From: a virus | Taxonomy: Duplodnaviria; Heunggongvirae; Uroviricota; Caudoviricetes | Virus record (IMG/VR): IMGVR_UViG_3300032322_002674 | Location: 1-45,457 of that record | Length of the DNA stretch: 45,457 nt | Direction: 5' to 3' (one strand) | Shown: positions 9,157-36,479 of the stretch, one piece after another | Numbering within the stretch: the stretch's first letter is position 1 | Layout of the letters: the number at the start of each line of letters is the position of its first letter | Notes under the pieces: generated by a model | The model's input: the letters and a program-made list of their open reading frames with translations, nothing else | What the model was told of the DNA's origin: nothing | Databases searched by the model: none | Program-made: the position numbers and the translations under genes

Positions 9157-10062
9157 TTATTTTTTAATTTTGCTAATGTATTTATATGCTGAAGGTAAGT
9201 AGTTATTATTATTATAAGGATTCATAGTACAAATATAACCTTTTTCTTCATCAACAACTAAACTATCAACAGGTGGGAATTTTTTACAAAAATTAATTTT
9301 TAATACAAAACATCCTTCACTACTTTGAACAATACCTTCTGATTTGAAAAATTCTCTTATTTTTGCTTGTGCAACTGGTAAACCATAAACAGAATTAAAA
9401 AATTTAAAATAAGTTCCTTTTTTTATTTCTTTTTTTCCATATACTTTTGTATCAATTTCTTGATTACCATGAAAAAAATAACTTCTTCCTTGAATAACCC
9501 CTTTTTCATCTTTTACAACAACCAATTGAATTTTATCCAAATTATTATAATAAAATTCATACCAACTCACATCAGGTTTTTCCCAACCTGAATTTTTTAA
9601 GTTAAAATTGGCACAAGAATTAATCGCAATTGTATTTACATTATTTGTATAATTAAATGCCTCAAGTATTTCTTCTTTGTTAGAAGGAAAGTGTAATGTT
9701 AAATTATCTCCCATTTTTGCTAAAAGTTTATTGTTAAAATTAAAAAAATCCTTTTCTTTAAATCTTCCTTTGTGTTCAGATGAATTAATTATGTGTTGTA
9801 AAACTCCTTGAATGTTTGGTGTAAATATTTTATTTTTTTCAAATCCACCATTTTTTAATCTACTGTGTTGACAATAAATAAAATTACCATTTTCAAAACC
9901 TAAATAATCATAAGAATTATCCTGTTCAACAACCAAATGACCGTAATTAAAAATATCTTCTAAAGTGTTAGGTTTAAATAATTTATTTATTTCAAAACCT
10001 ATTTTAGTTTCTGACTTAGGAATTAAATTTTTAAATGATTCTTGTATTGTTAATATATACAT
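9157..10062 (-). CDS. divergent paralog of the SCM/GRALLW family
   Basis: NSCAN, IQGRSYFF, FFNSVYG, FPPVDSL align by eye with the motifs of 7272-8252. Confidence 0.55.
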   Translation of the reverse strand: MYILTIQESFKNLIPKSETKIGFEINKLFKPNTLEDIFNYGHLVVEQDNSYDYLGFENGNFIYCQHSRLKNGGFEKNKIFTPNIQGVLQHIINSSEHKGRFKEKDFFNFNNKLLAKMGDNLTLHFPSNKEEILEAFNYTNNVNTIAINSCANFNLKNSGWEKPDVSWYEFYYNNLDKIQLVVVKDEKGVIQGRSYFFHGNQEIDTKVYGKKEIKKGTYFKFFNSVYGLPVAQAKIREFFKSEGIVQSSEGCFVLKINFCKKFPPVDSLVVDEEKGYICTMNPYNNNNYLPSAYKYISKIKK

Positions 10063-10565
10063 GTAAATATTTTTTTAAAAATTAAATTAAAATCTAAAGA
10101 GTGGGTTTCGTTTTTTAACCATTCAAAGTTATATTTATAACCCATATTATTCAACCACTCAAATGTTTTGTCATAATTAACAACAGTATCATCAGTTGAT
10201 ATAAACAAAGTAACATCAGTTTTTTCTTTTAATTCTTTAGTTAATTCCTTATTTACCTTAAAAAAATCTTTATAAAACCATTTATAGGAAAGGGTTATTT
10301 CAGATATTGCAGGATTAAAAAGAATTGTTTTTTTACCCAATAATGTACCAACATGAAATGCCCAAAACCCACCCATTGAATTACCAATTATATAATCATA
10401 ATCTTTTGCGATTTCCATTATATATTTAATAAATTTAGGGTTATTTCTATTTAACTCATAATCCATTGATGGGTTAAAGAAATCAACTTTATAATTTTTT
10501 AAAATTTCCCTAACTTCTTCTTCGTGTGTTCCACCTAAACCGTGAAACCAAAATACTTTTTTCAT
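10050..10565 (-). CDS. YqiA/UPF0227-like alpha/beta-hydrolase (esterase)
   Basis: FHGLGG oxyanion motif, GNSMGG nucleophile elbow, FNPA, DDTVV, C-terminal His (ETHSL). Confidence 0.85.
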   Translation of the reverse strand: MKKVFWFHGLGGTHEEEVREILKNYKVDFFNPSMDYELNRNNPKFIKYIMEIAKDYDYIIGNSMGGFWAFHVGTLLGKKTILFNPAISEITLSYKWFYKDFFKVNKELTKELKEKTDVTLFISTDDTVVNYDKTFEWLNNMGYKYNFEWLKNETHSLDFNLIFKKIFTCIY

Positions 10566-10756
10566 TCTAATTCAATTTTTATTATGTTATTTAAATCAAC
10601 TAATTCATTTGTTTTTAATTCTGTTACATTTAATACAACACCCCTAATAATTTCACCATTTTTTAATGTAACAAGAACTTTTTGGAAACCCATTCCTGTT
10701 TCTGGTAATTCAAGAAGAACATTTTTCCAATGATTATTTAATGTTATTTTAAACAT
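10562..10756 (-). CDS. small hypothetical protein
   Basis: 64-aa ORF, ATGA overlap with the esterase gene. Confidence 0.65.
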   Translation of the reverse strand: MFKITLNNHWKNVLLELPETGMGFQKVLVTLKNGEIIRGVVLNVTELKTNELVDLNNIIKIELE

Positions 10757-10837
10757 ATTTTTTTATAAAAGAATTTAAGATTGTTCCAAAAACCATAAAT
10801 TAAATCTAAACAAAAAAAAATTAAAAAGTCAAATTCA

Positions 10838-10845
10838 ATATTTAT
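10838..10845 (+). promoter_or_regulatory. putative phage late-promoter motif ATATTTAT
   Basis: Same octamer lies 5-21 nt upstream of starts at 10859, 13929, 17253, 19698, 32551, 43883 (+) and 38746, 39936, 43818 (-). Confidence 0.55.
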
Positions 10846-10858
10846 AATTAAAAAACTA

Positions 10859-12646
10859 ATGTCATTTATAGATAATAAAACCAAGATTTTCACCCAAATT
10901 GAAACAAATAGAGCAATATCCCAAATTATTGCAAATAAAGAAAAAACAATTAAAGGTATTTCCAAAATTATACAACAATTTTCTTCAATAAAAGATATTG
11001 GTGAGGATATAATACCCTTTCTTTTGGATATGTTGAAATCTTTAGATGGTTATCAAAAAATAGAAGAAGTGTTTGATAAGATTTTATTGGAATTAACAAA
11101 CATTGAAAATAAGGTTAAAGAAATTATATTTTTTGAATTAAAAGAAAATTTTTTATGTAATTGGACTGGAAATGGTTTACCACTTTTTATGACACAAGGG
11201 TGGAGAATTAAAATAACATCACTTGATTTGACAGAATTACTTAAAATTAATCCAAATACACAATTAGGTAATTTTTACTATGACAATAATTTTAATAAAT
11301 TTCTTTATGATAATGTATTGCAAATTCCAGGAACAACATCTACATGGGGTGATTTTTTAGAAATTACTTATTTGCAAAATAGTGAAGAATTTGAATTTAA
11401 AGTAAAAAATGTTTCTACTGTTAATGAATTTTATACAAAATTTATAAATTCAATTAATATTTTTCCAAAAGAAAATATATATTCTAAATTTATGGATGAA
11501 ATATTTGGTAATATAAAAAATGAACTATCTTTATCTTCAAATAAAATTAATTATGATGAACAAGTTAATACAATTATTGATAAATTATTGAATTCTGGTG
11601 AATTAATTGAAATTGATAATTCTTTTTTTGAATTTACCGAAGAAGAAACTTTACTTAACAATACTAAAACTAATCAACTTTTATCTGGTTTTGCAAATCA
11701 AGTATTTTGTGATATTAATGAATTAAATTTACCAACATCATCTATTACACAATCTTTTTTATTAATTAAAAATTCACCAAAATACAATGAAATTAAAAAT
11801 CAAATAATACTTAATATAAATGAAGTGGTTACAGAAAATGATAATATTTCACAAATTAATAAACAAACATCAAAAAATTGGTTTATTGTTGAATTTATAA
11901 AAGGTTTACCAAAATTATTAATATCATTTTTAATAACACCAAAAATAAATTTTTTATTTATAACAGGAGCAAAGATAACAAATACATATCAAGACTACAA
12001 TTTAATTGACTTTATAAAAAGTAATAAAAAAGTATTTTATAGTCTAACTAAATCTATACTTAAAACCATAATTAATATATTATATCCAATTATACTAAAA
12101 CTCATAAGAAAATTAGTAAGTAGAATTATTGCAGAAAAAACAAAGGAAAAGGTAAGAAATCAAAAATTGGTTTATAGTTCATTAGTTGGATTAAATAATA
12201 TAAATAATATTATAAATAATATTACTGATAACATACCTGAATTACCAGATAATGAAGTTTCTGCTATAATATTACTGATAAGAACTTTATTAAATAAGTT
12301 AGAAGTACCAGATACCCCAGCACCACAAATACCTTCACCATTAATACTTGCATCTGCAAGAAAACCTGGTTTATCTGCAACAAAAATTACATCAAGAATT
12401 ATTGAACGTCAAAATGAAGCAGGAATACCAAGTGGTGCATTACCTGATGGTACAATTTCACCTGATGAAGTGATGGAAACTATTAGAGTAGAAGAAATTA
12501 TTAAGGGAATACTTGAGGATATGAAAATAACAGTTGTTATACAACCTGGTGTTCAGGTTACTGCAACAGGAACTTCACCATTAGGACCAGTACAAGTGGT
12601 TGGTACAACCATTTCTTTGGGTGAGGGTTATGCAATTACTCAATGA
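10859..12646 (+). CDS. putative virion structural protein
   Basis: 595-aa ORF preceded by the ATATTTAT motif; Pro/Gly/Thr-rich beta-like C-terminus; near the baseplate gene. Confidence 0.5.
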   Translation: MSFIDNKTKIFTQIETNRAISQIIANKEKTIKGISKIIQQFSSIKDIGEDIIPFLLDMLKSLDGYQKIEEVFDKILLELTNIENKVKEIIFFELKENFLCNWTGNGLPLFMTQGWRIKITSLDLTELLKINPNTQLGNFYYDNNFNKFLYDNVLQIPGTTSTWGDFLEITYLQNSEEFEFKVKNVSTVNEFYTKFINSINIFPKENIYSKFMDEIFGNIKNELSLSSNKINYDEQVNTIIDKLLNSGELIEIDNSFFEFTEEETLLNNTKTNQLLSGFANQVFCDINELNLPTSSITQSFLLIKNSPKYNEIKNQIILNINEVVTENDNISQINKQTSKNWFIVEFIKGLPKLLISFLITPKINFLFITGAKITNTYQDYNLIDFIKSNKKVFYSLTKSILKTIINILYPIILKLIRKLVSRIIAEKTKEKVRNQKLVYSSLVGLNNINNIINNITDNIPELPDNEVSAIILLIRTLLNKLEVPDTPAPQIPSPLILASARKPGLSATKITSRIIERQNEAGIPSGALPDGTISPDEVMETIRVEEIIKGILEDMKITVVIQPGVQVTATGTSPLGPVQVVGTTISLGEGYAITQ

Positions 12647-12648
12647 TA

Positions 12649-13875
12649 TTAAAAACAAACATTAAAAAATTCTTCTAATTCTTGTTTTGTTTTTATATTA
12701 ATTATTTTACCCTTATTTTTATTAAAAAATTCCATCCATGTTGATACCACTTTATTTACTTTCCAAGAATCAAAATAACTGATTACTATATCTTTAAATT
12801 CTTTTAAATCTATTACTTCACCGTTTTCAGTAGAATTATTAAACCAATTAAATAATCTATTTTTAAAACGTTCACAACCCTTATAACCTGAATCCTGCCA
12901 TTTACCACCTTCAAAATAATGATTAATAAACATCAAATACATTCTAAGAAGTTGTGGTTCATATTTATTTAAATCTACAACATTATTAAGTCTTTTACTC
13001 ATTTTATTACCATCTTCACCAAGAATCATACCTTGATGTACTACCTTCTTAAAAGGTTCATCAAAGTCAATATAACCAATATCATATAAAAATTTAGTTA
13101 TAAATCTTGAGTAAATAAGATGAGCACAAGCATGTTCATTTCCACCTACATATATATCAACTGGTTTAGTTTTATCATACATTATTGTATAAAAAGAAGA
13201 ATCAACAAATGTATCTAAAGTATCACTTTCACCTTCCATTGGTATTGGGCAACCCCAACTTCTTTGCCTTGATACACACCAATCTCTAAAATTATCTTCT
13301 CTTAACCAATAAAGTTGTTGTTTTTTAGTCTTTTCAGGGTAGTCAACTTTTTCTAAATCTTTAATAAGTCTTTCTCTATAATCTGTAATTTTAAAATACC
13401 ATTGTTCCATTTCTTTTTGTTCTATTATTGCACCACTTCTTTCACCCCTTCCTTCTATAATTTGTTCATTTGCAAGAACTGTTTTATCAATTGGGTCCCA
13501 ATTAACTAAACCCATTTTTTTATAAGCAAGTCCATGTTTATAAAGTTCTTTAAATAACCATTGTGTTTTTTCAATATAATAAGATTCAGATGTAATTAAT
13601 TTCTCTTCAAAAGAAGTATTCATTCTAACCATTTCCTTGCGGAAATTTTCTATATTCTCATAAGTTACTTCTTTAGGATTTCTACCAATTTTTTTTGCAT
13701 AATTTTCTGCTGGAAGTCCAAAAGAATCAAATCCAAATGGTTGAAAAACATTATATCCTTTAAATCTTTGTATTTTACAATAAGAATCTACAATTGAGTA
13801 GTTATACCAATGTCCACAATGTAATCCACTACCTGATGGATAAGGGAACATAACTGTAATAAATAAATTTTTCAT
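12649..13875 (-). CDS. leuS: minimal leucyl-tRNA synthetase (class Ia), ~408 aa, lacking the CP1 editing domain
   Basis: MFPYPSG-LHCGH (HIGH), GFDSFGLPAENYA, TVLANEQI, QWYFKITDY, RDWCVSRQRSWG, DTLDTFVDSS, YVGGNEHA, KMSKR. Start reassigned to ATG 13875, 4 nt after a TATATTTG box. Confidence 0.9.
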   Translation of the reverse strand: MKNLFITVMFPYPSGSGLHCGHWYNYSIVDSYCKIQRFKGYNVFQPFGFDSFGLPAENYAKKIGRNPKEVTYENIENFRKEMVRMNTSFEEKLITSESYYIEKTQWLFKELYKHGLAYKKMGLVNWDPIDKTVLANEQIIEGRGERSGAIIEQKEMEQWYFKITDYRERLIKDLEKVDYPEKTKKQQLYWLREDNFRDWCVSRQRSWGCPIPMEGESDTLDTFVDSSFYTIMYDKTKPVDIYVGGNEHACAHLIYSRFITKFLYDIGYIDFDEPFKKVVHQGMILGEDGNKMSKRLNNVVDLNKYEPQLLRMYLMFINHYFEGGKWQDSGYKGCERFKNRLFNWFNNSTENGEVIDLKEFKDIVISYFDSWKVNKVVSTWMEFFNKNKGKIINIKTKQELEEFFNVCF

Positions 13876-13879
13876 AATA

Positions 13880-13887
13880 CAAATATA
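13880..13887 (-). promoter_or_regulatory. Bacteroidota-type -7 box (TATATTTG) for leuS
   Basis: Exact TAnnTTTG 4 nt from the ATG; TTG about 20 nt upstream; back-to-back with an ATATTTAT motif on the + strand (13916-13923). Confidence 0.65.
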
Positions 13888-13928
13888 ATAAAAAAACAAT
13901 AAAAAGTCAATGCAAATATTTATTTTAT

Positions 13929-14132
13929 ATGGATATTTTATTAACAAATAAGGAATTGGTTGAAAAAATGGGTAAACTTTTTAAAGAACATGAGGATTTA
14001 AAAGTTAAAATTTATAATGATATGATTTTGTTGGAAGAAAAAGAAAAAGAATATATTGAATTATATGAAGAATTAAATAAAAGAACTGGTTTTAAATCAG
14101 AAACAAAGGTGGAGGAAAAAATAAATGAGTAA
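13929..14132 (+). CDS. small coiled-coil hypothetical protein
   Basis: 67-aa ORF after the ATATTTAT motif; overlaps the next gene start. Confidence 0.65.
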   Translation: MDILLTNKELVEKMGKLFKEHEDLKVKIYNDMILLEEKEKEYIELYEELNKRTGFKSETKVEEKINE

Positions 14133-32217: not shown

Positions 32218-32481
32218 TTATTTATTATTTTCTAATAAGGTTAGTACTTCTTGTACTGCCTCTTCTAATGTTTCAAAATCTGAAACTGGTGTAAATCCTA
32301 TTTTTGTTTTAACCAAGAATTGTGGAACATGGTCATATTCCGAAAATTCTTTAAAAGTTTCCCATTCTTCTTCATTTTCATGAATATCTTTTTCTGAATA
32401 TTCAATTCCAGAAGAATTTAAAAGTTCCTTAATTTCCTTACAATAATCACAACCTTGCATTGTGAATAAAAATACCTTCAT
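32218..32481 (-). CDS. glutaredoxin/NrdH-like redoxin
   Basis: LFTMQGCDYC (CxxC), cis-Pro loop HVPQF. Confidence 0.9.
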   Translation of the reverse strand: MKVFLFTMQGCDYCKEIKELLNSSGIEYSEKDIHENEEEWETFKEFSEYDHVPQFLVKTKIGFTPVSDFETLEEAVQEVLTLLENNK

Positions 32482-32550
32482 ATATATATTTTTTTTAAAG
32501 TTAAACTATTGCAGAAAAAAGTAAAGAGATATTTATTAAAAAAAACATAA

Positions 32551-33987
32551 ATGTTAAAAATTTCTGACATATTAAATGAAATTGTTCAAGAAAATTTAAA
32601 TAAACTAAAAGAAGGTTTAAATCTAACATCTCGTGCTAAAAATAATTTAGAACAAAGGGAAGTATTTATAAAAGATAAATTAAATAAACCGATTGAAGAA
32701 TTAGATTTAAATGTTTTAGAATTAAATTTAAATAAAAATCAATTAGATATAATTGGTAAAAAAATAGTAGATAAATATCCATTTATAGAATATAAAGTTT
32801 TCCCATCCCATTTTCGTGAAAATTTAATAAGTTCAGAATATTATTTATTTCTTTATTTAAAAGAAGATAAAGATGTTTTTATTAGATTAGATTTATGGAT
32901 GGGTGATAAAAAAATAAGTGATGTTATTAATTATTTTAATAAAAAATTAGAAGAAAATAATTTAAATGAAAATACTGACCCAGCAGTTACAGATATTGCC
33001 AGAGCAAAAATATCTTTAAGTAAATCCAAAGATATTTTAAGGGATATGGGGGTTAATTTCGGTCAAGGAAAATGTTCTATACCAATTGGTTATAGTGGTG
33101 ATTTTTTTATGAATTCTTATGTTAGATTAATAAAATATAATGATATTAATAACCCAGTATTAACCCCAGGTAGTCAAAAATCACAAGATACATATAGATT
33201 ATTTGGTTCTGCATTAAATTTTTCTAATGTAAATGTTAATCAAAATCAACAACCCAATGGTGGTTCTCAAATAACATTATCTGGTGTTACTTTTGAATTT
33301 CAAGGTAATATGTGGGGAAAAATTAATAATAAAAAAGTTTGGTTAGATAACAAAGGAATCGAAGTTAATAATACAGTTTCAAATATATTGAATAGTATGT
33401 ATATAACAAATGAATCTAAAAATAAATTTTTAACATATAATAATATTGATTATGTAAAAACAAATATTGGTTGGGCAACATATAATAGAACAACTGGTAA
33501 AAGTGGTATGGTTATCACTAAAAAAAATAATGTACAACCAAATCAAACAACATTAAATAATGAATGGTTTAAAATTAATCCAATACCTAAAAATTATTCA
33601 TTAAAATATAATGGTTTTGATTATAAATTTGGTGAAGTTAAAAAAATTCAATCACCTTTAACTAAAAATTTAAATCAACAACTAACTAATGAATGGTTAA
33701 AACAAAATTCACAAAATCAAACCAATCAAATATCAAATGTAACTGTACTTGATGATATTTCAATAGAAAGTACAAAAGAAAAATTAGTTAATTGTGAAAT
33801 AGAATTTTATGAATTTGATTCTTCTTTTTTGAATAAACCTTTGCAAAAAGGATTTAGACCAAGAAAATTAACACCAGGTTCTTTTATAAAATGTAAAACA
33901 AATTATTATATAAAAATTTTAAAATCTTATCCCAAAATGAATAATTGTGAATGGGGTGTGATTTATATAACCCAATTAGAAATTTAA
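32551..33987 (+). CDS. putative virion protein carrying one copy of the EGLxLTSRA module
   Basis: ATATTTAT at 32529-32536; leader with ILNE/LKE; internal NNEW/TNEW repeats; directly upstream of the tape-measure-like gene. Confidence 0.6.
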   Translation: MLKISDILNEIVQENLNKLKEGLNLTSRAKNNLEQREVFIKDKLNKPIEELDLNVLELNLNKNQLDIIGKKIVDKYPFIEYKVFPSHFRENLISSEYYLFLYLKEDKDVFIRLDLWMGDKKISDVINYFNKKLEENNLNENTDPAVTDIARAKISLSKSKDILRDMGVNFGQGKCSIPIGYSGDFFMNSYVRLIKYNDINNPVLTPGSQKSQDTYRLFGSALNFSNVNVNQNQQPNGGSQITLSGVTFEFQGNMWGKINNKKVWLDNKGIEVNNTVSNILNSMYITNESKNKFLTYNNIDYVKTNIGWATYNRTTGKSGMVITKKNNVQPNQTTLNNEWFKINPIPKNYSLKYNGFDYKFGEVKKIQSPLTKNLNQQLTNEWLKQNSQNQTNQISNVTVLDDISIESTKEKLVNCEIEFYEFDSSFLNKPLQKGFRPRKLTPGSFIKCKTNYYIKILKSYPKMNNCEWGVIYITQLEI

Positions 33988-33989
33988 TT

Positions 33990-36479
33990 ATGGCAAATAA
34001 CCCTTTTAATAAACAAGACATTGAAAAAGAAATTGAAAGACTTAAAGAATTGGAAGAAATAACCAAATCTATTAATGGTAATTTAGGTCTTTGGGTTAAA
34101 TCTTATGGTCAAATTAATAAAATTCAAAAGGAATTAAATAAATCACAAGATACAATAAATAAATTAAAAGAAGAAGAATTAAATACTACTGACCAACAAA
34201 GAAAATTATTATTACAAGGTGTTATAAAAGAATTAGAAAATGAATATTCATTAGTTGAAGAAAAATTAAAATTAATAAAACAAGAACGTAATCTTCAAAG
34301 AGCAATACAAGGTGAAATAAAAAAAAGAACTAAAGAAACATTAGAAAGTGTTGGTGAAACCACAAAACAATATGTACAACAAAATTTTTCAGTATCATCA
34401 ATTTTATCTTATTTAACAGATATTGATTCACAAATAAGAAAAACCAATCTTGCAATAGGTGGTGGTGAGGAAGGATATAATAACATAAGAATTTCATTGG
34501 AAGAATCTGCAGGATTTTTAAGTAGAATTGGAGTTTCTTTGGCAGATGCGGCACAATTTCAAAGAATAATTACTGAACAAACTGGTAGGCAACAATTTTT
34601 AAATAGACAAAATGTTGAATCAATTGCATTAATGGTTCAAGGAACAGGTTTACAGGCAGAAATGATTGGTGAAATTGTTGCTGGAATGGAATTATTTGGC
34701 AGGGGTATTAATTCAACAAAAATGTTTATTGAGGAAACCCTTAACATGTCAAATGAAATGGGTTTAAATGGTATTGCTGTAACCAAAAAAATTGGTGAAA
34801 ATCTTAAAAAGGCACAAGGTTTCTTTTTTAAACAAGGTCAAGATAAAGGATTACGTAACATTGTTATGTTATCTGAAAAATATAGAATGAATATACAATC
34901 TGCATTAGGTTTTGCAGAAAAAGTACAAACTGTTGAGGGTGCAGTAGAAACTGCAGCACAATTACAAGTACTAGGTGGTTCTTTTGCTCGTTTAGGTAAT
35001 CCTTTTGAACTTTTATTTAAAAGTAGAAATGACATAGAAGGATTTGTTGAATCTTTGGTAAAAACTAATGACCAAATTGCAACTTTTGATAAAAAATCAA
35101 AAACATTTAAAATAAGTGCTCTTGAATTACAAAGATTAAAATCAATTGCAGAAGTTACTAGTATCCCTTTTGAGGAATTAACTGAATCTGCATTAAAATT
35201 TGCTCAACTATCTAAGGCATCATCTCAAATTAATTTTGGTACTAAAAAAGATAGGGAAATGATTGCCAATATGGCAAAATTAAATGAAAAAGGTGGGTTT
35301 GATGTTACATTTGAAAAGGGTGGAGAACAAGTTACAAGAGCAATTGAACAATTAACAAGTGCTGATTTGGGTTATTTAAAACAAACACAACAGTCTTTGA
35401 AAGAAAGAGCAGAACAAGCAATGGGTTTTGATGATACATTAAAATCTGTTACAGAAGAATTAAAAGCAACACTTTTACCACTTTTAAAAGGTATTAATGA
35501 AGCATTAATTTCCTTTAGAAGTTTTAGAGATTCACTTTTTGGTGAAGATGGTGATAGTTTTGCAAAAAAAATAATGATGGGTGGTTTACTTATTGCAGGG
35601 GTTGCTCCAGTATTATTATCTTTTGCATCAGTATTTTTAAGTGGAATTGGTAGATTAATGGCAGGTGGATTATTAAATAAGATGGGTTCTGCAAGTGCAA
35701 TGTCAACTGCAACTACTTTGGGTAAAGGTGGAATATTTTCATCACTTTTTGGTGGATTAAGTGTTGGTAAAGGTATTGCATTAATTGCTGGTGTAAGTGT
35801 TGCTATAATTGGATTATCTTATGCCTTTAAAAGTTTGGGTGATGTTAATTGGGGTAATATTGATATTGGTAAACTTGGGGGTCTTATGGCTGGTGTAGTT
35901 GCTCTTGGTTTTGCAGCTGCAAAACTTGGAGTTTTAATTAGTGCTTCTGGGGGTGGTGTTTTTGGAATAATTGCTGCAGGAATAGGAACATTAACCTTAT
36001 TATCACTTCCAATATTTACTTTCTCTTATGCATTAAATTCTTTAGGTGATTCTTTTAAAAATTTATCTATGGGAGTTAATTCTATTGATACAACCAAATT
36101 AAAAGATGTTTTATCTTCTATGGGTGATGTATTATCACAATCAACAAAATCTTTTGGTTCTGCAATTACTGAATCTTTATTTGGTAATAAAATAGAAGGT
36201 GTTGTTCAACCAATTGTGGAATTAAGTAAAATTGATAGTGAAAAACTTAAAGTAATTTCTAATCTATTTGCTCAATCAAAAGGAAAACCTTTAGTTGTTA
36301 AAGTAACTGATGATATTAATATCAAATTTGATGATTTAAAAATCAATATTAATGGTGAAACAAGTGTTGTAAATAATTCTAAATTAAGGGAAAATATTAA
36401 AGAACAAGTAATTCAATCACTAAATGATGCATTTTATACAAATAGAATATCTGTTCCTTCTTTAAATGGTAGAGGTTAA
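33990..36479 (+). CDS. tape-measure-like protein
   Basis: Long helical/coiled-coil N-terminus followed by Gly/Ala-rich hydrophobic segments; likely ATG at 33990 (MANNPFNK), just after the upstream stop. Confidence 0.65.
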   Translation: MANNPFNKQDIEKEIERLKELEEITKSINGNLGLWVKSYGQINKIQKELNKSQDTINKLKEEELNTTDQQRKLLLQGVIKELENEYSLVEEKLKLIKQERNLQRAIQGEIKKRTKETLESVGETTKQYVQQNFSVSSILSYLTDIDSQIRKTNLAIGGGEEGYNNIRISLEESAGFLSRIGVSLADAAQFQRIITEQTGRQQFLNRQNVESIALMVQGTGLQAEMIGEIVAGMELFGRGINSTKMFIEETLNMSNEMGLNGIAVTKKIGENLKKAQGFFFKQGQDKGLRNIVMLSEKYRMNIQSALGFAEKVQTVEGAVETAAQLQVLGGSFARLGNPFELLFKSRNDIEGFVESLVKTNDQIATFDKKSKTFKISALELQRLKSIAEVTSIPFEELTESALKFAQLSKASSQINFGTKKDREMIANMAKLNEKGGFDVTFEKGGEQVTRAIEQLTSADLGYLKQTQQSLKERAEQAMGFDDTLKSVTEELKATLLPLLKGINEALISFRSFRDSLFGEDGDSFAKKIMMGGLLIAGVAPVLLSFASVFLSGIGRLMAGGLLNKMGSASAMSTATTLGKGGIFSSLFGGLSVGKGIALIAGVSVAIIGLSYAFKSLGDVNWGNIDIGKLGGLMAGVVALGFAAAKLGVLISASGGGVFGIIAAGIGTLTLLSLPIFTFSYALNSLGDSFKNLSMGVNSIDTTKLKDVLSSMGDVLSQSTKSFGSAITESLFGNKIEGVVQPIVELSKIDSEKLKVISNLFAQSKGKPLVVKVTDDINIKFDDLKININGETSVVNNSKLRENIKEQVIQSLNDAFYTNRISVPSLNGRG

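Follow-up and report, generated by a model that had tools for sequence, protein, structure and literature searches.

The gene analyzed here lies on the minus strand of a 45,457-nucleotide window, which covers the first 45 kb of a viral record of 173,457 bp (IMG/VR record IMGVR_UViG_3300032322_002674, Caudoviricetes; 24% G+C, completeness estimate 82%, ∼210 kb estimated when complete). It encodes a leucyl-tRNA synthetase (LeuRS) of 408 amino acids that represents a real, conserved, and phage-specific minimal form of the enzyme (hereafter mini-LeuRS). The initial annotation had described a half-size LeuRS without an editing domain and had proposed a natural near-minimal synthetase. Both descriptions are upheld by an intact gene, a confidently predicted fold, conserved catalytic motifs, a ratio of nonsynonymous to synonymous substitution rates (dN/dS, ω) of 0.03–0.10, and many phage homologues of the same size. 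On balance, and with modest confidence, we favor a functional phage gene that specifies a minimal LeuRS of the bacterial type, which would charge host tRNA-Leu without editing.

We aligned the window protein with the 860-residue E. coli LeuRS (leuS from NC_000913.3). A total of 452 E. coli residues are absent from the window protein, at eight places. The N-terminal 31 amino acids (E. coli residues 2–32) are deleted. The CP1 editing domain is replaced by the four residues REDN, which lie in the junction string QQLYWLREDNFRDWCVSRQR (residues 186–205). The junction string PIPMEGESDTLDTF at residues 210–223 marks the loss of the ZN2 insert (E. coli 435–483), and a further 15 residues are missing inside E. 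coli 504–522. E. coli residues 571–617 are replaced by GEDG, giving the string GEDGNKMSKR at residues 286–295. This deletion coincides exactly with the leucine-specific domain as bounded in the literature (A571–M617; PMC3643597). The helical bundle lacks 23 residues in small gaps (within E. coli 698–746), and the protein stops opposite E. coli residue 765, so that residues 766–860, comprising the bundle end and the whole C-terminal domain, are absent. In E. coli LeuRS, the C-terminal domain (D791–G860) contacts the elbow and the long variable arm of the tRNA (PMC4005665).

These losses agree with the earlier claims that the leucine-specific insert before KMSKR is missing and that the anticodon-binding/C-terminal region is truncated. 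The claim of a cut “Zn/CP2” region is correct in one part only: the insert following CP1, named Zn2 in the structure paper on N. gonorrhoeae LeuRS (PMC9424281), is lost, whereas the helical CP2 preceding CP1 (E. coli ∼190–224) is kept. The NCBIfam model leuS_bact (TIGR00396) matches the window protein in three pieces, at model positions 30–221, 411–428, and 484–707 of 843. Over the aligned parts, identity is ∼40% to E. coli LeuRS and 45–53% to the nearest bacterial LeuRS, and LeuRS chains of the PDB match the window protein with E values of 1e-78 to 1e-66. Judged from these alignments, the domain map and the LeuRS identity of the window protein are near certain.

The fold of the window protein was modeled with AlphaFold2 on the basis of a 132-sequence alignment. 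The model is confident throughout (mean predicted local distance difference test score (pLDDT) 95.4; predicted TM-score 0.92) and shows no disordered segment. The C terminus is organized in four helices (residues 328–346, 358–369, 374–387, and 394–407; pLDDT ∼98). In a Foldseek search, the best match was the CP1-less LeuRS of Mycoplasma mobile (PDB code 3ZIU; TM-score 0.91 on the query); other bacterial LeuRS ranked next, ahead of methionyl-tRNA synthetase. The modules retained are the Rossmann-fold synthetic site, the ZN1 hairpin, the helical CP2, the stem-contact fold, and four helices of the bundle.

Within the synthetic site, the HIGH signature had been noted as HCGH and the ZN1 knuckle as free of cysteine; both strings are present, the knuckle reading VNWDPIDKTVLANEQIIEGRGERSGAIIE. 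Four to five cysteines are found in ZN1 in 113 of 123 aligned family sequences, and the remaining 10 are without these cysteines, with none at all in the window protein. On this alignment, the cysteine-free ZN1 is a minority variant and not a family trait. The KMSKS motif appears as KMSKR (residues 291–295), with KMSK kept across the family. Active-site residues that are kept include M9, P11, Y12, D50, F223, Y229, H248, H252, the GNEHA loop, KMSK, and W190. We take the leucine/adenylate pocket of the T. thermophilus and E. coli structures to comprise E. coli M40, Y43, D80, F493, Y499, H533, and H537. M9, Y12, D50, F223, Y229, H248, and H252 of the window protein do not vary in an alignment of five sequences and reach at least 90% conservation across 132 LeuRS.

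In N. gonorrhoeae LeuRS, a glutamate and an arginine of the hairpin, a tryptophan at the end of CP2, the GIEHA loop, and a tyrosine of the L550 helix close on ATP (PMC9424281). The equivalent residues of the window protein (E137, R146, W190, G245–A249, and Y255) are conserved; across the 132 LeuRS, R146 is invariant and E137 almost so. Canonical LeuRS (81 sequences) have 124 aligned columns with at least 85% conservation, and at 90 of these the mini-LeuRS family has the identical residue. Among 115 short members, 34% of the positions are at least 95% conserved, and the highly conserved blocks comprise MFPYPSG, LH.GH, QPFG.D.FGLP.ENYA, DWCVSRQR.WG.PIP, DT.DTFVDSS.Y, VD.YVGG.EHA..HLIY.RFI, HQGMI, KMSK, and LMFI.HYF.GG.W. 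At the site of the leucine-specific domain, the family consensus is G-x-D-G followed by x-KMSK. Together, these residues make an intact adenylation site, and predicted leucine activation by the window protein, well supported.

The same conservation bears on a non-catalytic role, in which the protein would be a regulator or decoy that binds leucine or tRNA-Leu, for example by sequestering uncharged tRNA-Leu or by sensing leucine. Halobacterial LeuRS2 and Sulfolobus LeuRS-I do bind tRNA with little or no charging (PMC9437257), but such a protein would have no need of invariant HIGH and KMSK motifs, an invariant priming loop, and invariant hairpin residues in contact with ATP, and we regard this role as highly improbable.

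Several other positions (C33, C200, C209, N318–F321, W344, W371, and W380) are 95–100% conserved in the family and rare in the corresponding columns of canonical LeuRS. The three cysteines could make up a new site for a metal ion or a disulfide bond, and the three tryptophans may re-pack the truncated bundle.

A homologue search covering 5.8 billion proteins listed 120 matches at 59–90% identity, 113 of them 396–441 amino acids and seven 520–533 amino acids long. The seven longer members (P0071, P0028, P0035, P0041, P0050, P0069, and P0076) carry the editing-domain family PF13603, and 520–533-residue forms are also found at loci L019–L021. We define the mini-LeuRS family as proteins of 396–441 amino acids that fall in one clade of the LeuRS tree and carry three signature strings, W-L-x(3-6)-D-W-C-V-S-R-Q-R, P-I-P-x-E-G-E-x-D-T-L-D-T, and F-I-N-H-Y-F-x-G-G-x-W. 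The window protein belongs to it by length, junction strings, and clade; some members carry the plain JGI annotation “leucyl-tRNA synthetase.” From 185,579 prokaryotic species, each represented by one genome, 80 loci were kept, of which only 2 are family members; both lie on 2–5-kb contigs of lake metagenome bins, and the remaining kept loci are full-length leuS genes of the ordinary kind. Mini-LeuRS is essentially confined to phages. One member resides in the 634,780-bp phage record LR745206.1 and another in a 63-kb viral record (estimated 86% complete) that has no tRNA; other family-bearing viral records are fragments of 100–180 kb, estimated to represent 13–60% of the genome.

The gene is intact at all 19 viral loci (IMG/VR plus one NCBI assembly). 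The initial annotation had considered relaxed selection among homologues, the mark of a degenerating gene; instead, Nei–Gojobori dN/dS ratios are 0.03–0.10 (34 pairs with dS 0.3–1.0). Regional ω values are 0.077 for residues 1–195, 0.037 for residues 196–326, and 0.095 for the helical remnant (residues 327–408), demonstrating strong purifying selection along the whole length of mini-LeuRS. A decaying remnant of a captured host leuS, as the half size and a score under the TIGR00396 cut-off might suggest, is rejected with hardly any reservation in view of these ω values, the more than 110 same-sized homologues, the intact gene at 19 of 19 loci, and the pLDDT of 95.

In a maximum likelihood tree of LeuRS (quick method, unrooted), the short and the 520–533-residue forms constitute a single clade with 100% support in the Shimodaira–Hasegawa-like approximate likelihood ratio test and a stem length of 1.0. 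The longer forms are 62–72% identical to the window protein (best local alignment; for example P0071) and share its ZN2, leucine-specific, and C-terminal deletions as well as its C terminus. They differ by a reduced CP1 of ∼120 amino acids with the editing motifs TTKPET and GTG..VP.DD.RD. Within the unrooted tree, these CP1-bearing forms are nested at at least three places among CP1-less members. Because they are scattered in this way, repeated loss of the last editing remnant within the family would be the simplest reading. The nearest labeled cellular LeuRS come from Ignavibacteriota, Bacteroidota, and some Alphaproteobacteria; we claim no donor or host because the immediate sisters of the family are unlabeled metagenomic proteins.

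Other short metagenomic LeuRS-like proteins fall outside the family (P0187, 419 amino acids; P0126, 569 amino acids; P0172, 580 amino acids). P0187 has a very long branch and is without CP1, ZN2, and the C terminus, with an insert before KMSKS kept. P0126 is without CP1 and the leucine-specific domain, with the C-terminal domain kept.

Part of this reduction has a counterpart in M. mobile LeuRS, which shares with the phage protein the bacterial type, a short linker in place of CP1 (REDN in the window protein), and a G-x-D-G motif before KMSK (GEDG-N-KMSKR in the phage, GKDG-QKMSKS in M. mobile). M. mobile LeuRS retains the full anticodon-binding bundle and the C-terminal domain. It is the smallest LeuRS characterized (637-residue chain), and the phage protein is still shorter by ∼230 residues and has neither the ∼70 residues present at the ZN2 position nor the ∼170 residues past the aligned C terminus. 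Whereas the M. mobile enzyme is the sole LeuRS of its cell, mini-LeuRS is an accessory phage gene. In M. mobile LeuRS, CP1 is replaced by the nonapeptide KEEIDGKIT and the leucine-specific domain by GKDG; the enzyme charges tRNA with a kcat/Km of 0.24–0.26 per s per μM and mischarges Ile (PMC3643597). When the leucine-specific domain is removed from E. coli LeuRS, GKDG restores 55% of the activity and AAAA 0.55% (PMC3643597). Because M. mobile LeuRS charges tRNA without CP1 and the leucine-specific domain, these two deletions have an experimental precedent.

The leucine codons of the mini-LeuRS genes provide a further link to tRNA charging. In the genes at loci L009, L011–L016, and L024–L027, TTG accounts for 19–26 of 26–27 leucine codons, compared with 5–22% in the neighboring open reading frames (ORFs). 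Ranked by TTG fraction among 137 ORFs of these loci, the top eight are the eight mini-LeuRS genes (0.74–0.96), with the next ORF at 0.31 and a median of 0.06. The skew is confined to leucine, as the codons of other amino acids do not deviate in mini-LeuRS genes. TTG is kept at 76–100% of conserved leucine sites, whereas other conserved residues keep their codon at 54–72% in the same pairs. In LR745206.1, all 18 leucines of mini-LeuRS are encoded by TTG, and leucine makes up 4.3% of the protein. The window gene uses CTT for 11 of its 25 leucines against a background of 14% (binomial 3e-4), the top rank among 106 ORFs, of which only one has less leucine than the 6.1% of the window gene. Reportedly, the selective-charging theory of Elf, Ehrenberg, and colleagues holds that genes needed under limiting charging favor the codons of low-demand isoacceptors; the leucine-codon pattern would be of the kind this theory predicts.

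If the enzyme charges host tRNA-Leu, the window protein would activate leucine to leucyl-adenylate (Leu-AMP) and then transfer leucine to the tRNA without proofreading. This would add Leu-tRNA capacity during infection for phage proteins that contain ∼9% leucine, mostly encoded by TTA, and the low leucine content and unusual leucine codons of the enzyme would sustain its own synthesis when the main Leu-tRNA is scarce. The initial annotation had suggested that the enzyme may charge phage tRNAs, bypass a host defense, or supply aminoacyl-adenylate to another pathway. For the phage of the window, charging of phage tRNAs is not supported by the 173-kb record, whose only tRNA is a tRNA-Lys(UUU) located outside the window (152588–152661), an isoacceptor that anticodon nucleases are known to target. 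Given this sole tRNA-Lys and the lack of any tRNA in the 86%-complete relative, the host's tRNA-Leu is more likely to be the substrate. No tRNA-Leu was found in 15 partial viral records.

Several observations weigh against this reading. Y-x-P-Q stands where class Ia enzymes have YGAD, and the protein departs from E. coli LeuRS at R418, Y427, W498, and R502. Besides the C-terminal domain, the distal helices of the bundle are missing, and the LeuRS of both E. coli and T. thermophilus lose aminoacylation and editing altogether when the C-terminal domain is deleted (PMC3561953). The TIGR00396 score of 347.9 bits is below the curated cut-off of 548.4 bits, which, by the alignment, is due to the missing domains and not to divergence. 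The skew of the window gene itself is modest (p ∼0.0025 for leucine, one of 18 tests), with TTA still used for 13 of 25 leucines. No tRNA-Leu was found in the window, the 173-kb record, or the 10-kb flanks of 18 related loci. Finally, a published account of a truncated phage LeuRS family was not found in the full-text literature, the coverage of which mostly excludes subscription journals. Because loss of the C-terminal domain kills charging in the E. coli and Thermus enzymes, we only infer tRNA charging by the window protein.

The main rival is an adenylate-only enzyme that would form Leu-AMP without charging tRNA and would pass leucine to a small molecule, protein, or carrier, or would make Ap4A-type nucleotides as do some aminoacyl-tRNA synthetase (aaRS)-like paralogues. 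The lost C-terminal domain and the altered YGAD motif fit such an enzyme, and there is a natural example in Sulfolobus LeuRS-I, a LeuRS paralogue capable of Leu-AMP formation and tRNA binding but not of aminoacylation (PMC9437257). However, no conserved neighbor that could serve as acceptor or pathway partner occurs across the 19 loci, the tRNA-side helical remnant, which is not obviously required for adenylation alone, is as constrained as the catalytic half, the GxDG linker required for charging by M. mobile LeuRS is conserved, and the leucine-specific codon skew links expression to Leu-tRNA. We therefore consider the adenylate-only enzyme unlikely, and favor a tRNA-linked role in view of purifying selection on the helical remnant, conservation of the linker that is critical for charging, and the restriction of the codon skew to leucine.

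Alternatively, mini-LeuRS might be one subunit of a two-part enzyme, with tRNA binding and perhaps editing supplied by a separate phage or host protein, similar to the split LeuRS of Aquifex aeolicus or to helpers of the Arc1p/Trbp111 type. The absent parts are precisely those that bind tRNA, and the window record is just 82% complete by estimate. Still, a search with TIGR00396 revealed no second LeuRS-like segment in the 173-kb record. In LR745206.1, LeuRS-model matches elsewhere are weaker and class Ia-like, and none covers the positions of the C-terminal domain. A second LeuRS-derived subunit gene carrying the missing domains, as the initial annotation had envisaged, was thus found in neither record. 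No tRNA_bind (PF01588) domain was found, and all-against-all clustering of ORFs yielded no gene common to all 19 loci other than LeuRS, synteny around mini-LeuRS being confined to one sub-clade. A two-part enzyme is hence quite improbable, a partner from some other protein family being conceivable. Within the 173-kb record, PF00133 and PF00750 match the mini-LeuRS ORF only, and PF00152 and PF00587 have no match; the record contains no Arg, class IIa, or class IIb core-family aaRS, the search having left aside classes Ib and Ic and the remaining class II.

LR745206.1 offers a different setting, with 61 tRNA matches and an array of Pro, Asp, and Gln tRNAs that begins ∼0.9 kb downstream of mini-LeuRS. 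Five tRNAs with leucine anticodons were identified in this one genome by ARAGORN typing only, each with A73. Three of them (UAA, UAG, and CAA) are 74–76 nt long with short variable loops and resemble type I tRNAs, whereas a long variable arm, contacted by the LeuRS C-terminal domain, is the norm in bacterial tRNA-Leu (PMC4005665). Tentatively, the family could embody a phage-specific mode of tRNA-Leu recognition, in which a ∼400-residue LeuRS charges without the C-terminal domain, variable-arm contacts, or editing and, in some phages, forms a semi-private pair with a short-loop phage tRNA-Leu. With such a pair, the TTG-only coding in LR745206.1 would tie or buffer synthesis of the enzyme to one isoacceptor, and the window enzyme would be the tRNA-less version working on host tRNA-Leu. 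We hold this proposal less firmly than charging of host tRNA-Leu by the window protein.

LR745206.1 contains three more class Ia synthetase-like frames, at 32264–33601 (−), 34735–35700 (−), and 382125–384215 (+), of 474, 483, and 739 amino acids. They match the LeuRS model weakly (40–83 bits) and may be other shortened synthetases.

Compared with the canonical bacterial LeuRS of E. coli, T. thermophilus, and N. gonorrhoeae, mini-LeuRS shares the synthetic site, the ZN1 hairpin, the CP2 helices, the stem-contact fold, and the first helices of the bundle, but it has neither an editing site nor a C-terminal domain and carries Y-x-P-Q in place of YGAD. Sulfolobus LeuRS-I and halobacterial LeuRS2 are similar in that an extra LeuRS-derived protein with impaired or absent editing exists beside a full LeuRS, which in the phage case is that of the host. 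These archaeal or chimeric proteins are, however, of full length and possess C-terminal domains, in contrast to the bacterial-type core with clean deletions found in phages. A review of aaRS duplications names no LeuRS-like paralogue of this kind (PMC9437257). For the aaRS of huge phages, a role in sustaining translation during takeover has been proposed (Al-Shayeb et al. 2020, PMC7162821); the paper mentions neither LeuRS nor truncation (“leucyl” has 0 occurrences). Unlike in that setting, the window gene lies in a record of an estimated ∼210 kb when complete, with a single tRNA.

The coordinates of the features are compiled in Table 1. The mini-LeuRS ORF (408 codons plus stop) is intact, and the gene is a lone minus-strand gene set between plus-strand genes, one of which weakly resembles a baseplate hub gene (phrog_430, E 1e-5). 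Translation probably starts from the ATG at 13875, the position at which the N termini of homologues align; an alternative TTG start at 13947, 72 nt upstream, would give an extension of just 24 amino acids. A promoter-like element ends 6 nt before the ATG, with no Shine–Dalgarno sequence between.

Table 1. Location of features of the mini-LeuRS gene in the window and of related features at other loci
Feature	Position	Strand	Basis and remarks
Complete 408-amino acid minimal LeuRS gene, stop included	12649..13875	(-)	ORF translation; TIGR00396 E 1e-103; PF00133 E 4e-38
HIGH signature as HCGH, residues 19-22	13810..13821	(-)	Alignment; family consensus LH(I/C/V)GH
ZN1 (“CP1 hairpin”) knuckle, residues 124-152	13420..13506	(-)	Cysteine-free; E137 and R146 retained
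CP1 editing domain junction, residues 186-205	13261..13320	(-)	E. coli 225-416 replaced by four residues, REDN; alignment and unmatched hidden Markov model positions 222-410
ZN2 deletion junction, residues 210-223	13207..13248	(-)	E. coli 435-483 gone; alignment
GEDG replacing the leucine-specific domain, then N and KMSKR loop, residues 286-295	12991..13020	(-)	Alignment
Anticodon-binding helical bundle remnant, residues 327-408	12652..12897	(-)	Alignment; AlphaFold2 model
Promoter-like TTGACT-17-TATATT	13882..13910	(-)	Consensus match only; shuffles of the region match equally often
TTG-skewed mini-LeuRS genes	Loci L009, L011-L016, L024-L027, ∼10000-11250; also L127:2983-4257		
LR745206.1 leucine-anticodon tRNAs	L145:1581-1662, 2433-2508, 2601-2692, 2700-2775; L153:1174-1247		

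At the edge of the window, an ORF at 3–2435 (−) encodes at least 811 amino acids and is open at the window end. It matches phrog_4871 (“ATP-dependent protease,” E 2e-244), carries two AAA+ modules, and resembles a Clp/Lon-type ATPase gene. The IMG/VR record behind locus L013, which bears a mini-LeuRS and is classed as a provirus (132 kb, estimated 60% complete), contains a full-length GOLLD RNA (L121:2643–3049; RF02032, 324 bits, E 7e-93) beside tRNA-Met genes. Four loci have tRNA-like matches of 105–108 nt (L123:1501–1608; L120:1501–1605; L162, L173) with insertions of 20–43 nt in or near the anticodon loop; the insertions are possibly introns, and ARAGORN makes no call there.

If active, mini-LeuRS would be by far the smallest natural LeuRS, against the 637-residue chain of M. 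mobile and the ∼860 amino acids of E. coli. It would then constitute a natural experiment on which modules of class Ia synthetases are dispensable, including a C-terminal domain deemed essential in model bacteria, and would indicate that phages tolerate and repeatedly select the loss of proofreading. An active enzyme would also offer a compact scaffold for engineering orthogonal leucine pairs. The leucine-only codon skew represents a rare and clean case of codon choice tied to the function of a gene's own product.

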